IMG/VR virus record: IMGVR_UViG_3300021141_000706
DNA from: a virus
Reading direction: 5' to 3' (one strand)
Length of the DNA: 64,000 nt
The translations under genes and the position numbers were made by a program. The notes under the pieces are model-generated. The model was given only the letters and a program-made list of their open reading frames with translations. It searched no databases and had not been told where the DNA came from. Shown one piece after another: positions 5,462 through 31,689 of this stretch. How positions within the stretch are numbered: position 1 is the first letter of the stretch; each line of letters opens with the position of its first letter.

Positions 5462-5539
5462 ATGACAACAATTACTAACATAGCGTATTATTATGAGGGA
5501 GAGCGTGGCTCAAACGTCAGACTAATGTCTATGTCGTAA
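5462..5539 (+). CDS. Attenuator leader peptide 1 (MTTITNIAYYYEGERGSNVRLMSMS), Tyr/Glu-sensing
   Basis: 25 codons with TAT TAT TAT GAG GGA GAG; contains gtcagact complementary to the terminator arm; Tyr/Glu tRNAs downstream. Confidence 0.8.
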   Translation: MTTITNIAYYYEGERGSNVRLMSMS

Positions 5540-5561
5540 TGGAATCATTATGATATTAACT

Positions 5562-5885: not shown

Positions 5886-5916
5886 TTTGGATAATTAAAA
5901 AATATCCTTATCTTTG
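5886..5916 (+). promoter_or_regulatory. Internal Bacteroidota-type promoter before the second Glu/Tyr tRNA pair
   Basis: TTTG(5886-89)-N19-TATCTTTG(5909-16). Confidence 0.65.
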
Positions 5917-6159: not shown

Positions 6160-6240
6160 ATGAAAAATTTAAATAACATATCAACAGCGAAAATAGGAGG
6201 CGGCGCGGGAGCGAATGTCACTGGCTGGATTATGTTGTAA
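6160..6240 (+). CDS. Attenuator leader peptide 2 (MKNLNNISTAKIGGGAGANVTGWIML), Gly/Ala-sensing
   Basis: GGA GGC GGC GCG GGA GCG run; tggctggatt pairs with the terminator 5' arm; Gly/Ala tRNAs downstream. Confidence 0.8.
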   Translation: MKNLNNISTAKIGGGAGANVTGWIML

Positions 6241-6263
6241 TTTTTTATCAAAAGAATTAAACG

Positions 6264-6304: not shown

Positions 6305-6394
6305 TGGCGAATAGCAGTGGTGTCTTATACACACTATACCTGTAGCGGTAACTTGAGATAGTATCAAACGTGGGTTCGAATCCCACTTCGCCAA
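6305..6394 (+). ncRNA. Non-canonical tRNA-like RNA (possible TAT anticodon arm, no clear D arm)
   Basis: Perfect acceptor tggcgaa/ttcgcca and T arm gtggg-ttcgaat-cccac; atypical core. Confidence 0.6.
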
Positions 6395-6402
6395 CAAAAA
6401 TT

Positions 6403-21934: not shown

Positions 21935-23407
21935 ATGAAAAACATCGTAACAAGAATCGCACCCTCACCAACTGGACCTTTTGCTCATATTGGTAATGTA
22001 AGAACACTATTATATAACTACTTTCTTGCTAAGAAAAGTGGTGGTAAATTCTTTGTGAGATTGGAAGACACCGACAGAGACCGTTATACGGCTTCGTTTC
22101 TAACATATTTCAAAGATATGTGTGATTGGCTTGGTATAGTACCAGATGGTTCTTATTGGAACCCAGATCCTTCTATCGGCTCTTTCACTCAATCAACAAG
22201 AGATTATTCTGATAAAGTTAAATTTTTATTAGATAACGAATTTGCTTATTATGCTTTTGATTCTAAAGATGATTTAGACTTGGCTCATAAAACAATTCCT
22301 AACTTCAAATACGATGCTACAACTCGTATGACTATGAAGAACTCATTAACAATGACTAAATCGGATGTTGATGCGGCTATTGCTACAGGTAACTATGTTA
22401 TTCGTTTTGCTGTAACTCCAGATGTTGATGTTGTAATCAACGATGCTATTTTAGGAGATATCACAATCAGTACTAATACTTTAGATGATAAAGTTTTGAT
22501 TAAGTCAAATGGTATTGGTTCTTACCACCTTTGTAATGTTTGTGACGACCACGATATGGGTGTTACTCACGTTCTTAGAGGTAACGAGTGGGTAAACTCA
22601 ACTCCTTTCCATGTTATTCTTTACAAGGCTTTTGGTTGGGATGTTCCAACATTCGCTCATCTACCTTTAATTATGAATCCAGATGGTAAAGGTAAGTTGT
22701 CTAAGAGAACTGCTATGAAGTATGGTATTCCAATTGCGCCACTTGGTTACACTGACGAAAACGGTGTTTACAATGATGGTTGGAAAGATTTAGGTTTTGA
22801 CCCAAAAGCATTTATGAACTATCTTGCCTTAATTGGTTGGAATCCAGGTGCTGAAGTTGAAATTATGTCTATGGATGATATGATTAACTCATTCTCTTTA
22901 GATAGAGTTCACAAGGCTGGGGCTCGTTTCGATATGGATAAAGCAAAGTGGATGAACTCACAATATCTTAAATTAACAGACAATAAAGACTTAATGCCTT
23001 ATGTCCATGTAGTTGATGATAGATACTCTGATGATAAGTTAGATGCTATTGTTTCATTGGCTAAAGATAGAGCTGACTTCAAAACTGACTTAAACAAAAT
23101 TGTTAAATTGTTCTTTGATTTACCAACTATCGATGATAGAAGTAAGTTAGATGATAACTATACAAAAGTTATGTCAGACTTCATCAATAAGATTGATACA
23201 ATCAACTTTGATGATACGAACTCAATCAAAGACACTATCTCAGCAATCTGTAATGATTTAGGTGTTAAGATGGGTAAAGTAATGCCTGGTTTAAGAATGG
23301 CTTTAGTATCTGGTATTGCGGGTCCGGACTTAATGACAACAATGTCAATTTTAGGTAAAGACCAAACTAAGTTGAGAATTAACAACTCGATTGTAGTAAT
23401 GGCTTAA
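21935..23407 (+). CDS. gltX: Glutamyl-tRNA synthetase
   Basis: RIAPSPTG.AHIGN, RLEDTD, DDH.MGVTHVLRG.EW, KLSKR, LRMALV. Confidence 0.95.
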   Translation: MKNIVTRIAPSPTGPFAHIGNVRTLLYNYFLAKKSGGKFFVRLEDTDRDRYTASFLTYFKDMCDWLGIVPDGSYWNPDPSIGSFTQSTRDYSDKVKFLLDNEFAYYAFDSKDDLDLAHKTIPNFKYDATTRMTMKNSLTMTKSDVDAAIATGNYVIRFAVTPDVDVVINDAILGDITISTNTLDDKVLIKSNGIGSYHLCNVCDDHDMGVTHVLRGNEWVNSTPFHVILYKAFGWDVPTFAHLPLIMNPDGKGKLSKRTAMKYGIPIAPLGYTDENGVYNDGWKDLGFDPKAFMNYLALIGWNPGAEVEIMSMDDMINSFSLDRVHKAGARFDMDKAKWMNSQYLKLTDNKDLMPYVHVVDDRYSDDKLDAIVSLAKDRADFKTDLNKIVKLFFDLPTIDDRSKLDDNYTKVMSDFINKIDTINFDDTNSIKDTISAICNDLGVKMGKVMPGLRMALVSGIAGPDLMTTMSILGKDQTKLRINNSIVVMA

Positions 23408-28141: not shown

Positions 28142-28333
28142 ATGAAAACAGGAACAGTAAAGTTCTACAATGAAGCTAAAGGATTTGGTTTCATCACAGA
28201 CGAAAACGGAACGGACGTGTTTGTACACGCTACAGGACTAAACGATGAAATCAGAGAAAACGATTCAGTTAACTTTGAAGTAACAGAAGGTAAAAAAGGA
28301 TTAAGCGCAGTTAATGTAACAGTTAACTCTTAA
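28142..28333 (+). CDS. cspA: Cold-shock protein
   Basis: GTVKFYNEAKGFGFI, DVFVH, EGKKG..AVNV. Confidence 0.92.
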   Translation: MKTGTVKFYNEAKGFGFITDENGTDVFVHATGLNDEIRENDSVNFEVTEGKKGLSAVNVTVNS

Positions 28334-28356
28334 TATATTTTTAGTACTAAAGAATT

Positions 28357-28388
28357 AAAGCCCTTAGATTTTTATCTGAGGGTTTTTT
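28357..28388 (+). terminator. Intrinsic terminator after csp
   Basis: aaagcccttaga/tctgagggtttt. Confidence 0.7.
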
Positions 28389-28412
28389 GTTTTAAAAATT
28401 AATATATAATCT

Positions 28413-28781
28413 ATGAAATATTTACAATCAATAAATGAATATCAAAGAACCGTAGGATTCAGATATTCTGAACCAAAAGAATCTTATAATATTGACATAT
28501 TATTAAGAGGTGAAGATATCACTGAAGATAAAATAATCTTAGGTTTATCTAAAGTTAGTGAGTTGTTTTACGACCAAGAGTCTGTTGAAGTTAATATTCT
28601 TGATGAAGGAACTGTTGCTGAGTTAGAAGATGGTGCTGTTGAAATAGATGCTGTTGCTCATTTTAACATTACTGTTTATAATGAAAGAGAAATACTTACT
28701 ATAGTTGAAGAACTAGGTAGAAAATTAACACCTTTTAATATTGAAATATTAGATTTCAAATCAAAAGAAAATTTCAAATAA
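28413..28781 (+). CDS. Hypothetical protein (MKYLQSINEY N-terminus)
   Basis: AATATATA upstream. Confidence 0.6.
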   Translation: MKYLQSINEYQRTVGFRYSEPKESYNIDILLRGEDITEDKIILGLSKVSELFYDQESVEVNILDEGTVAELEDGAVEIDAVAHFNITVYNEREILTIVEELGRKLTPFNIEILDFKSKENFK

Positions 28782-28793
28782 AAATAAAAAATA

Positions 28794-28866
28794 TTTGACA
28801 AATTAAAACTTTGTTGTATATTTGTATAAAATAAGAACAAAAGGAAGAAATCCTTTTTAATATATA
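28794..28866 (+). promoter_or_regulatory. Host-type plus late-type promoters for leader 4
   Basis: TTTG(28794)-N19-TATATTTG(28817); AATATATA(28859). Confidence 0.65.
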
Positions 28867-28871
28867 CTGAA

Positions 28872-28970
28872 ATGAAAAACTTAAACTTAAATATCGTTAA
28901 CCCGCAACCACAAGTTGTAATCGATCAGGATCCTGATACGAAAGGGGCTAACTATGTGGTTTTAAGTTAA
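28872..28970 (+). CDS. Attenuator leader peptide 4 (MKNLNLNIVNPQPQVVIDQDPDTKGANYVVLS), Pro/Asp/Gln-rich
   Basis: PQPQ..DQDPD; ggctaact pairs with terminator arm agttagtc; Pro/Asp tRNAs downstream. Confidence 0.78.
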   Translation: MKNLNLNIVNPQPQVVIDQDPDTKGANYVVLS

Positions 28971-28994
28971 GAAAATATTTAACTATGAAACATT

Positions 28995-29027
28995 ACCCAG
29001 TTAGTCGAAAGATTAACTGGGTTTTTT
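28995..29027 (+). terminator. Attenuator terminator 4
   Basis: acccagttagtc-gaaa-gattaactgggt plus T-tract. Confidence 0.85.
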
Positions 29028-29042
29028 GTTTTTAGTAAAAAA

Positions 29043-29116
29043 CGGGTAGTGACTAAGGTTTTAAGCACGGGGGCTCTGGAGGCTTCAGTTAGTCGGTTCG
29101 ATTCCGACCTACCCGA
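29043..29116 (+). tRNA. tRNA-Pro(TGG), atypical anticodon loop (C33)
   Basis: C1:G72, A73; ggggc-tcTGGag-gcttc. Confidence 0.7.
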
Positions 29117-29159
29117 CAAAATACTCTTTAGAGAATAGAGTAAAAGAATTCTCAAATAC

Positions 29160-29232
29160 GGATGTGAGGTCAAACGGTTAAGATGTCTGCCTGTCACGCA
29201 GTTCGGAGCGGGTTCAACTCCCGTCACGTCCG
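29160..29232 (+). tRNA. tRNA-Asp(GTC)
   Basis: ctgc-ctGTCac-gcag; G73. Confidence 0.9.
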
Positions 29233-29238
29233 CAAATT

Positions 29239-29309
29239 GGTCCTGTAGTTAAACGGCTATAATGTCGCCCTGCACGGCGAAGTTCGGAGTTCGATTCTCC
29301 GTGGGACCG
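29239..29309 (+). pseudogene. tRNA-Asp-like with 6-nt anticodon loop (ctgcac)
   Basis: Asp-type body with G73; loop is one T short of ctgtcac. Confidence 0.65.
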
Positions 29310-29314
29310 CAAAA

Positions 29315-29391
29315 CGAGATGTTGGGGAGTCCGGTTACCCCGCCTGCTTTGGGAGCAGGAGAACTCGCAGGTTCGAATCCTGCCATCTCGA
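29315..29391 (+). tRNA. tRNA-Pro(TGG)
   Basis: cctgc-ttTGGga-gcagg; C1:G72. Confidence 0.93.
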
Positions 29392-29421
29392 CAAAGAAAC
29401 AAAATATTAATAAATAGAATT

Positions 29422-29472
29422 ATGAAAACAACATCACAATACCAACAACAACAAATTAATCGAACAGATTGA
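29422..29472 (+). CDS. Attenuator leader peptide 5 (MKTTSQYQQQQINRTD), Gln-sensing
   Basis: 5 CAA codons, 4 consecutive; cagattga pairs with terminator tcaatctg; tRNA-Gln x2 and glnS downstream. Confidence 0.85.
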   Translation: MKTTSQYQQQQINRTD

Positions 29473-29500
29473 TAACGGTATCGTATTGTTAAAACTTTAC

Positions 29501-29535
29501 AAACCCTATTCAATCTGATTGAATAGGGTTTTTTT
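29501..29535 (+). terminator. Attenuator terminator 5
   Basis: aaaccctattcaat-ctg-attgaatagggttt plus T-tract. Confidence 0.88.
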
Positions 29536-29537
29536 AT

Positions 29538-29609
29538 TGCTCCATAGTATATGGGTGATCATATCTGTCTTTGAAACAGATGAGCTTGGTTCGAGTCCAA
29601 GTGGAGCAA
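29538..29609 (+). tRNA. tRNA-Gln(TTG)
   Basis: tctgt-ctTTGaa-acaga; U1:A72. Confidence 0.88.
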
Positions 29610-29615
29610 CAACAA

Positions 29616-29686
29616 TGTCTCGTAGTGTAACGGCAGCACAGAAGATTTTGACTCTTCTAGTCTAGGTTCGAATCCTAGCGAGACAA
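29616..29686 (+). tRNA. tRNA-Gln(TTG)
   Basis: gaaga-ttTTGac-tcttc; U1:A72. Confidence 0.92.
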
Positions 29687-29704
29687 CTAAAAAATATAAA
29701 AATT

Positions 29705-31309
29705 ATGAATTTCATTGAAGATAAAATATTAGACAAAAATAATCTTGATAAATTAACATTAAGATTTCCACCAGAACCAAATGGTTACTTACATATTGGT
29801 CACGCTAAATCCATTATACTTAATTTTGGATTAGCTGAAAAGTATAATAGACCTTGTAATCTAAGGTTCGATGATACAAATCCAACTACTGAAGATACTC
29901 ACTATGTAGAATCAATTGTAAAAGATATAGAATGGCTTGGTTACAAACCAGCTAATATTTTCTATACATCTGATTATTTTGACTTTCTTTACAATTGTGC
30001 GATTACTTTAATTAAAAAAGGCTTAGCTTATGTTGATGATTCAACATCTGAAGAAATTGCTTTAATGAAAGGAACTCCAACTTCAGTTGGTAAAGACTCA
30101 CCTTACAAATCTAGATCAGTAGAAGAAAACTTAGACTTATTTAATAGAATGAGATTAGGTGAATTCACCGAAGGTTCTAAAATCTTGAGAGCTAACATTG
30201 ATATGACTTCTCCAAATATGATTTTAAGAGATCCAGTTATTTATAGAATAATCTCTAAGTCACATCACAGAACTGGTGATACTTGGAAGATTTATCCAAT
30301 GTATGACTTTGCTCATCCTTTATCTGATTATAAAGAAGGTATCACTGATTCACTTTGTACTTTAGAATTTGAAGTTCATAGACCTTTATATATGTGGGTA
30401 TTAGAAAATTGTGATTTAGAAAATTCATTACCAGAAGAAACTGAGTTTGCTCGTTTGAACATTGACTATACAGTTATGTCAAAGAGAAAGTTAAAAAGAC
30501 TTGTAGAAGAATCTTATGTTACAGGATGGGATGATCCAAGAATGCCAACTATATCAGGTTTAAGAAGAAGAGGTTTTACACCAAATGCTATTAAAGATTT
30601 TTGTGATAGAATTTCTGTTACAAGAAAAGAATCAGTTGTTTCTTACTTACTTTTAGAAGAATGTTTAAGAACTGATTTGAATGTTGTTGCTAATAGACTA
30701 ATGGGTGTCATGTATCCGATTAAGTTAGTTATTACTAATTGGGATATGGGAACTGAAATGGTTGAAGTTGAAAATAATCCTGGTGATGAAAGTGCTGGAG
30801 TGAGAATGATTCCTTTTAGTGGTGAATTATTTATTGAGGCGGAAGATTTCAGAGAAGAAGCCAATAACAAATTCCACAGATTAAAATTAGGCAGTGAAGT
30901 AAGATTAAAAGGTGCTTATGTTATTAAGGCTAATGAAGTTATCAAGAATGAATTAGGGGAAATTATTGAGATCAGATGTACTTATGATCCTTTAACAAGA
31001 TCGGGTATGACTTTTGAAAGAAAGATTAAAGGAACTATTCACTGGGTATCTGCTGAACACGGAGTTAGAATAAATGTAAATGAATATGATAGATTATTTA
31101 ATGATGAATCACCTGATAAAAATGAAGATGATTTTATCAATTATATCAATCCAGATTCACTTATTATTAACGACAAGGCAATCCTTGAACCTCACGTTTT
31201 AAACGTCAAGGAGCCTGTTCAAATGATGAGAAAAGGGTATTATATTTTAGATACTGACGGTAAAAGTTTCAATAAAACTGTAAGTTTGAAAGAAGGATGG
31301 GTAGGTTAA
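29705..31309 (+). CDS. glnS: Glutaminyl-tRNA synthetase
   Basis: RFPPEPNGYLHIGHAKS, RFDDTNP, IYPMYDFAH, SLCTLEF, VMSKRKL, GWDDPRMPT, KGTIHWVS. Confidence 0.96.
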   Translation: MNFIEDKILDKNNLDKLTLRFPPEPNGYLHIGHAKSIILNFGLAEKYNRPCNLRFDDTNPTTEDTHYVESIVKDIEWLGYKPANIFYTSDYFDFLYNCAITLIKKGLAYVDDSTSEEIALMKGTPTSVGKDSPYKSRSVEENLDLFNRMRLGEFTEGSKILRANIDMTSPNMILRDPVIYRIISKSHHRTGDTWKIYPMYDFAHPLSDYKEGITDSLCTLEFEVHRPLYMWVLENCDLENSLPEETEFARLNIDYTVMSKRKLKRLVEESYVTGWDDPRMPTISGLRRRGFTPNAIKDFCDRISVTRKESVVSYLLLEECLRTDLNVVANRLMGVMYPIKLVITNWDMGTEMVEVENNPGDESAGVRMIPFSGELFIEAEDFREEANNKFHRLKLGSEVRLKGAYVIKANEVIKNELGEIIEIRCTYDPLTRSGMTFERKIKGTIHWVSAEHGVRINVNEYDRLFNDESPDKNEDDFINYINPDSLIINDKAILEPHVLNVKEPVQMMRKGYYILDTDGKSFNKTVSLKEGWVG

Positions 31310-31689
31310 GATACCTCCCATCTTCCGTCTGATAAAAATTTATAAGAGCCGACAAACTCAAATTTTTTCCATTGGTCTGGAGATATTAAAGAAAGGAATT
31401 CTTCACCGGATTCCTTTTTGTATAAATGATAAATTTCGCCGGAAGTTGGTTCAAAATTATGAGAAGCCATATAAAGTCTTTCATTCATTTTAATTTCAGA
31501 CATTAACTTTTCATACTCTTTCGTCATTTCTTCAAATTTTGACGAATAGTATTTTTTTATCTTAGAAGTTTTTTCAATTTTAAATAAACCGATATTATCC
31601 GGAGCAAATTTTGGTGCGCCAATTTCCGTTGGATAGGCTTTAATCATTCGATTTTCTACAAAACTATCTGGTCTTTTCTTCTGTTCCAT
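31306..31689 (-). CDS. DUF2452-like protein
   Basis: YPTEIGAPKF, NFEP..GEIYHLY, FLSLISP.QW. Confidence 0.65.
   Translation of the reverse strand: MEQKKRPDSFVENRMIKAYPTEIGAPKFAPDNIGLFKIEKTSKIKKYYSSKFEEMTKEYEKLMSEIKMNERLYMASHNFEPTSGEIYHLYKKESGEEFLSLISPDQWKKFEFVGSYKFLSDGRWEVS

Follow-up and report, generated by a model that had tools for sequence, protein, structure and literature searches.

A candidate leader-peptide attenuator with proline, aspartate and glutamine codons in front of tRNA genes of a huge phage

A group of tRNA genes in a huge phage appears to be preceded by a leader-peptide attenuator of the trp/ilv/thr type. In the window, that is, the whole 64-kb stretch of IMG/VR virus record IMGVR_UViG_3300021141_000706 analysed here, a short open reading frame (leader 4) lies between a promoter and an intrinsic terminator and is followed by tRNA-Pro and tRNA-Asp genes and then by a further unit for Gln (Table 1). 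The marks of an attenuator found here are a conserved short ORF, clustered cognate codons and an intrinsic terminator, together with an antiterminator that forms in silico when a ribosome stalls in the leader and does not form with the ribosome at the stop codon. Direct support exists for the elements themselves and for how well they are conserved, as well as for the competing helices and the correspondence of codons to tRNAs. On these sequence grounds, ribosome-mediated attenuation acting on phage tRNA genes is the likely function of the region, and the phage probably makes its Pro and Asp tRNAs and the Gln unit only when the Pro, Gln and Asp codons of the leader are read slowly. The original prediction of a Pro/Asp(/Gln) attenuator is thus supported in silico, since the features that can be tested in sequence are present and are conserved in about 17 homologous units.

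The window consists of AT-rich phage DNA with 32 tRNA genes. Two uncultured huge phages, LR745206.1 (634,780 bp) and LR756502.1 (642,428 bp), are the nearest annotated records, and their GlnRS proteins are 78% and 73% identical, respectively, to that of the window. Both fit the size class of more than 634 kb that Al-Shayeb et al. (2020; PMC7162821) assign to the Mahaphage clade, with Bacteroidetes as predicted hosts and with many genes for tRNAs and aminoacyl-tRNA synthetases. In the window, 12 sites fit the Bacteroidetes promoter pattern TTTG-N17-21-TAnnTTTG, where 4.6 would be expected; none of 100 shuffles gave as many, and this enrichment is consistent with the host prediction for phages above 634 kb. 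The DNA runs containing the stretch come from lake-water metagenomes, and part of the stretch is also present in six metatranscriptomic runs. Among contigs aligned to positions 28300-31400, those from four of these six runs cover the leader, and three extend across the terminator as far as the tRNAs (one of them is X15 record 3, 28847-29156). RNA-library contigs of this kind, which give no transcript ends, strand or level and may reflect DNA carry-over, are no more than compatible with the proposed reading.

Table 1. Coordinates of leader 4, of the genes behind it and of related features in the window
Feature	Position	Strand	Description
gltX-type synthetase gene	21935-23407		
Bacteroidetes-type promoter	28794-28824	+	-33 TTTG 28794-28797; -7 TATATTTG 28817-28824
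AATATATA motif	28859-28866	+	5 nt 5' of leader ATG; gene-start motif of the phage
AATATATA sites, examples of 20 in the window	9413(-), 9441, 12693(-), 13931(-), 21694(-), 25735(-), 28401, 28859, 31787, 35797(-), 38185		
Leader ORF (leader 4)	28872-28970	+	32 codons + TAA (28968-28970); product MKNLNLNIVNPQPQVVIDQDPDTKGANYVVLS
Region 1 (5' strand of 1:2 helix)	28891-28903	+	overlaps codons 7-11; from minimum-energy folds
Regulatory codon block, codons 11-22	28902-28937	+	P Q P Q V V I D Q D P D
Region 2	28945-28957	+	pairs with region 1 or (28946-28953), as antiterminator, with the terminator 5' arm
Spacer hairpin	28959-28991	+	contains stop codon; brings regions 2 and 3 together
Intrinsic terminator	28995-29027	+	12-bp stem, GAAA loop, T6 tract
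Region 3 (terminator 5' arm)	28996-29006	+	
Region 4 (terminator 3' arm)	29011-29021	+	
Atypical tRNA-Pro(UGG)	29043-29117	+	C33, weak D stem
Spacer between first Pro and Asp tRNAs	29118-29159	+	42 nt; small hairpin ACUCU/AGAGU, GAATTC palindrome
tRNA-Asp(GUC)	29160-29233	+	50.7 bits
Asp-like tRNA gene	29239-29310	+	6-nt anticodon loop CUGCAC, rest intact
tRNA-Pro(UGG)	29315-29392	+	55.8 bits
Gln unit (nested second gate)	29422-31309	+	starts about 30 nt past the last Pro gene
Gln leader	29422-29472	+	QYQQQQ
Gln-unit terminator	29501-29531	+	
tRNA-Gln, two genes, Gln(UUG)	29538-29687	+	
glnS	29705-31309	+	synthetase gene

The leader had been described as holding three Pro, three Asp and three Gln codons, and the count is exact: in NPQPQVVIDQDPD, Pro is encoded by CCG, CCA and CCT, Gln by CAA, CAA and CAG, and Asp by GAT three times. 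Nine of the 12 residues in the core are therefore Pro, Asp or Gln, against a background frequency of 0.13 in the phage itself (binomial p = 2e-6, for a segment picked post hoc). Among 56,342 six-frame segments of 12 stop-free residues in the 64 kb, only three contain at least eight such residues, and all three lie inside the leader. Over the whole ORF, the enrichment in the three amino acids is modest (9/31, p = 0.017), and Pro and Asp alone are not significantly enriched across that length (p = 0.11). The MKNLN start that leader 4 was said to have in common with leader 2 (6161-) is borne out. The further proposal built on it, that the module was duplicated and re-tuned, is plausible and weakly tested: units 2, 3 and 4 share a 5' region and an MK(N/T)..N start, and a GAN motif is common to units 2 and 4, but the A-rich leader starts could equally result from convergent selection for translation initiation.

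The transcript of this region can adopt mutually competing structures. The claimed 8-bp pairing of ggctaact (28946-28953) with agttagtc (28999-29006) exists as seven Watson-Crick pairs and one G.U pair, and its second strand is the 5' arm of the 12-bp terminator hairpin. Folded freely, the RNA forms the 1:2 helix (28891-28903 with 28945-28957), the spacer hairpin and the terminator, with a z-score of -7.2 relative to shuffles. The three alternatives are nearly equal in energy, at -17.5 kcal/mol for 1:2, -17.8 kcal/mol for the 2:3 antiterminator and -18.0 kcal/mol for the 3:4 terminator. The effect of a ribosome was modelled by masking a 28-nt footprint on a nascent transcript cut before the 3' arm. 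In this in silico setting, a stall at codons 11-20 leaves the full 8-bp antiterminator, 6 bp remain with the stall at codon 22, and 0 bp once the ribosome has reached the stop codon. In nascent RNA without a ribosome, 2:3 is slightly favoured thermodynamically, so that termination in the absence of a stall would depend on kinetics; the movement of the ribosome and the sequence in which helices fold must bring it about. The stop codon lies 25 nt 5' of the terminator, and a terminating ribosome therefore leaves the hairpin unblocked. Taken alone, the 8-bp 2:3 pairing is near chance, as about 10% of shuffled leaders pair equally well with the terminator arm (p ~0.1). For the 2:3 duplex in single sequences, comparison with shuffled leaders gives p ~0.05-0.19, and values of 0.007-0.017 are reached only in two of the relatives, L008 and L006.

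Comparison with related huge phages carries the argument further. Relatives were gathered from phage, IMG/VR and metagenome collections by means of a GlnRS anchor and the terminator pattern, giving about 17 homologous units (designated by L numbers) whose glnS genes are 70-98% identical. All of them show the promoter, the AATATATA motif, an ORF of 25-35 codons, the Pro/Gln/Asp core and the terminator, followed by Pro and Asp tRNAs. Both the -33 and the -7 box are invariant in a nine-sequence alignment (A1). The homologous ORFs lie in the same start context, begin with MK(N/T) or MNF and share a core of the form (Q)PQPQ...DQD(P)D, within which the codon alignment reveals synonymous variation: the second Pro position is CCA, CCG, CCT or CCC, Gln is CAA or CAG, and Asp is GAT or GAC. 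The tail of the peptide varies across relatives except for the nucleotides of region 2, which are conserved. Spacing is constant as well, with 14-17 nt from region 2 to the stop codon and 22-28 nt from the stop codon to the terminator.

With the 3' arm removed, the antiterminator is part of the minimum-energy fold in eight of the first nine homologs (L004 folds differently), and two of these eight, L010 and L006, carry a different terminator sequence. In L010 and L022, the whole terminator stem has been replaced, with AGUUAGU kept at the junction of arm and loop, where it is complementary to region 2. In L006, both strands of the 2:3 helix have changed (GCUGGCUG with CAGUUAGC) and the pairing is retained. 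Helix pairs were also counted in 11 sequences, with 500 shuffles and slid-partner controls. The 3:4 terminator is 95% paired with five compensatory pairs, a level that no shuffle attained (0/500; slid partners 19-50%). The 2:3 antiterminator is 93% paired with one compensatory pair (47/500 shuffles as high; slid partners 4-50%), and covariation is uninformative for this helix because both strands are nearly invariant. Support for the 1:2 helix is weak: it is 75% paired with four compensatory pairs (42/500 shuffles as high; slid partners 31-40%), in several relatives a different duplex ranks above it, and L002 has it as a re-matched 9-bp version.

These observations bear on one alternative, an ordinary junction of terminator and promoter. 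In that case the hairpin would end the upstream gene (28413-28781), the ORF would have arisen by chance or encode some unrelated micropeptide, and expression of the tRNAs would come from elsewhere or through leak-through. The near-chance level of the 8-bp pairing taken by itself would fit such a junction, as would the stretch between the upstream gene and the leader, in which there is no other terminator. However, the promoter lies 5' of the hairpin, where a plain terminator would silence it. Nor would a chance frame be expected to keep its ORF, its start and stop spacing and its synonymously varying core in about 17 relatives, or region 2 to be conserved at the nucleotide level and to stay complementary even after the terminator stem has been replaced. 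We consider an ordinary junction highly improbable.

The AATATATA motif, which precedes every leader homolog, is no more frequent in the window than expected by chance (20 copies against 20.3). Most copies lie 5-12 nt before start codons, those of every leader ORF included. It is a candidate for a phage-specific promoter, perhaps a late one, or for an initiation element; as a promoter it would give rise to nearly leaderless mRNAs.

The identity of the sensor cannot be told from alternative hairpins alone, and the choice between antiterminator and terminator might in principle be made by a protein or, as in a T-box, by an uncharged tRNA, with the ORF being incidental. However, positions 28780-29420 give no match to a T-box or to any other Rfam cis-regulatory or leader family, either at gathering score or at E values up to 5, and the specifier loop and T-box sequence are absent from the leader. 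In the relatives, the identity of the amino acids is selected and third positions are free, which is the signature of coding. A switch that operates independently of the ribosome is accordingly given very little credence here, and attenuation by a translating ribosome remains the preferred reading.

The genes behind the terminator follow in the order that had been claimed, namely Pro, Asp, Asp-like and Pro tRNAs and then the Gln unit. ARAGORN detected the first tRNA-Pro only after its threshold had been relaxed, and the gene scores below the gathering cutoff of Rfam; across 10 relatives, covariation is seen in its acceptor, anticodon and T stems. It belongs to a subfamily of Pro tRNAs with C33, comprising the window gene and copies in L001 (870-944, 1443-1517) and L002 (932-1005, 1390-1464), in which the anticodon is UGG or AGG, the universal U33 is replaced, a U32-G38 pair is possible and the D stem is weak. 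Such tRNAs could be anticodon-loop variants that escape host nucleases. The spacer that follows this gene is nearly identical before the homologous tRNA-Asp of L001 (about 1048-1084; GlnRS 78% identical) and may represent a processing signal. In the Asp-like gene, contigs of close relatives have an extra T after 29272 that restores a CUGUCAC loop, and the window copy might be functional though odd, might have become a pseudogene, or might reflect a slip in assembly.

Abnormal anticodon loops also occur elsewhere, at 6305-6395 in the window (cc), at 3244-3315 in L004 (gt), at 1365-1438 in L001 (8-nt loop, gtag) and at 1554-1623 in L002 (6-nt loop, Pro-like). The end of the Pro/Asp array of L002 (1465-1710) consists of three degenerate tRNA-like elements: one with a tetraloop instead of an anticodon loop, one with a 6-nt loop, and one with a UGU anticodon, a truncated T arm and a Pro-like acceptor.

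The Gln unit lies directly behind the array in the window and in L001-L004 and L007, and none of these has a -7 promoter box in the interval that separates the Gln leader from leader 4. Being promoterless in the lineage of the window, the Gln unit is reachable only through the terminator of leader 4, which places two gates in series. The Gln component of the original prediction holds up in the relatives as well, where tRNA-Gln lies either in the array itself (L010, L017, L025/26, L031) or right behind it with no promoter between. The Gln codons of the leader make sense on two counts, through this dependence of the Gln unit on terminator 4 in the lineage of the window and because Gln tRNAs belong to the array in several lineages. 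Arrays that include tRNA-Gln have three or four Gln codons in their leader, and L008, whose Gln unit is independent, has a single one. The link is imperfect, as three or four Gln codons persist in L006 and L029 with the Gln unit about 2.3 kb distant. The trend for Gln codons in leader 4 to go with a nested Gln unit is thus suggestive only.

A more general match between leaders and tRNAs is evident in the window. When its five leaders were compared with the five sets of downstream tRNAs, the true pairing ranked first among all 120 permutations. Among the relatives, L029 is alone in having a tRNA-Arg(UCG) in the array behind its leader (286-455), and in that leader the Asp codon is directly followed by CGA, so the leader may here have kept pace with the gain of a tRNA. 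For some array tRNAs, namely Glu in L006, Ser(GGA) in L007 and Ser(GCU) in L025, the leader offers no cognate codon.

These data also address another alternative, in which the terminator is coupled to translation without being specific, so that it senses general translation capacity or allows a fixed partial read-through rather than reporting the supply of Pro, Asp and Gln tRNAs. A fixed read-through would stem from slow peptide-bond formation at Pro and Asp. Both are poor substrates for peptidyl transfer and are intrinsically slow, and stalling might therefore not report tRNA supply. The weak enrichment of Pro and Asp over the whole ORF, and the array tRNAs that lack a leader codon, are in keeping with such a terminator. 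Against it, the five units of the window have distinct codon sets that each match their own tRNAs, Gln codons are conserved although Gln is not intrinsically slow, and the adjacent Gln-only leader applies the same architecture to one amino acid. A non-specific terminator is therefore unlikely, and we retain codon-specific attenuation as the working interpretation.

Two further leaders were observed in passing. In L009 (433-584; on a contig shared with L030, and from a 519-kb relative), a leader, MKNVNTYTVNTLRQLVLEQLIESCPAGICSFTS, and a terminator belong to a different unit, followed by tRNAs for Leu, Arg, Leu, Met, Glu, Ile, Leu, Glu, Glu and Leu; the codon-matched design thus also works with another set of amino acids. 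Leader 1 of the window (5463-5540, YYYEGERGS) has two Gly codons, and a Gly/Ala unit (leader 2, 6161-6241) lies downstream of it. The Gly/Ala unit has no host-type promoter of its own, yet a promoter at 5886 lies between leaders 1 and 2. Leaders 1 and 2 may gate serially, in the manner of units 4 and 5.

The following course of events is proposed for leader 4. We infer that the leader is translated, that ribosome and polymerase are coupled and that read-through depends on stalling. Transcription would begin at the host-type promoter, and the 32-codon leader would be translated. With charged Pro, Gln and Asp tRNAs in plentiful supply, the ribosome would run past region 2 to the stop codon, region 3 would then pair with region 4, and the polymerase would terminate at 29022-29027, before the tRNA genes. 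Slow decoding at any of the nine Pro, Gln or Asp codons (28902-28937) would instead leave a stalled ribosome that splits region 1 from region 2. Region 2 (28946-28953) would then capture 28999-29006, the terminator would be blocked and transcription would go on. Read-through would yield tRNA-Pro, tRNA-Asp and tRNA-Pro and would then meet the Gln-specific attenuator that gates tRNA-Gln and glnS. As the tRNAs produced read the test codons and would relieve the stall, the circuit would exert negative feedback on tRNA supply.

If this model is correct, the first gate acts as an OR-gate on the decoding of Pro, Asp or Gln, and the second, placed before tRNA-Gln and glnS, responds to Gln only. Each set of tRNAs and synthetase would be transcribed only while its own codons are read slowly, which could occur upon host shut-off, through a mismatch in codon usage or when host tRNAs are cleaved by defence nucleases. 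With regulated products that are themselves the tRNAs decoding the test codons, feedback on translation capacity would be direct, and these would be the first class of tRNA genes found to be autoregulated through their own decoding. The succession of a Pro/Asp/Gln gate and a Gln gate would add a layer of logic specific to unit 4. The broader proposition, that huge Bacteroidetes phages adjust their own tRNA supply by means of portable, codon-matched leader-peptide attenuators, of which two stand in series here, we regard as evenly balanced. Its confirmation would explain how dozens of tRNAs are dosed in huge phages and would provide a testable link between phage tRNA arrays and depletion of host tRNAs, including that caused by anticodon-nuclease defences. 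Tight coupling of transcription and translation in a Bacteroidetes host would be implied, for if classical attenuation extends to the phages of Bacteroidetes, then the coupling of ribosome and polymerase does too. Units of this kind would also be of use in synthetic biology, as small sensors for particular codons.

Attenuation through leader peptides is textbook knowledge, and predictions for Bacteroidetes include a Trp leader motif. To our knowledge, every target described for it is an amino-acid biosynthesis gene or a synthetase gene. Leader 4 departs from this usual class of targets, in that tRNAs come first and glnS stands behind a second gate, and no publication describing leader-peptide control of tRNA genes was found in the literature searched. 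In 2010, Naville and Gautheret (PMC2965389) noted that demonstrated cases of leader-peptide systems were confined to Proteobacteria and Actinobacteria. The tRNA arrays of huge phages have been described (Al-Shayeb et al., 2020; PMC7162821), in a paper that does not cover the regulation of the arrays and in which the words attenuator, leader and terminator are absent.

Among established systems, the T-box riboswitches of Firmicutes resemble leader 4 in matching translation genes to the charging or supply of specific tRNAs through a terminator and an antiterminator. T-boxes bind uncharged tRNA and need no ORF, whereas leader 4 has no T-box motif and shows the codon conservation of a coding sequence. 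The closest likeness in mechanism is to thrL (Thr and Ile), to ilvL of ilvGMEDA (Ile, Leu and Val) and to trpL. Like leader 4, these are short promoter-proximal ORFs with regulatory codons, of several kinds in the multivalent thrL and ilvL, and have exclusive 1:2, 2:3 and 3:4 pairings (in leader 4 the 1:2 helix is weakly supported, and antitermination upon stalling is predicted), a terminator before the regulated genes and antitermination upon stalling. In contrast to these leaders, leader 4 would regulate tRNA genes instead of biosynthetic enzymes, so that its product would directly restore the decoding rate. It belongs to a huge phage with a predicted Bacteroidetes host and is without homology to them, as seen from the lack of an Rfam leader match, and its ribosome would pass through region 2 (28945-28957), with the stop codon 11 nt after it. 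The pheM leader of E. coli pheST shares with leader 4 the attenuation, through cognate codons, of a component of the translation apparatus, and glnS lies behind the unit of the window. pheM controls only a synthetase, whereas in the phage tRNAs come first and two putative attenuators follow one another, one for Pro, Asp and Gln and one for Gln. It is this arrangement of a three-amino-acid gate in series with a Gln gate that constitutes the unit's own contribution.
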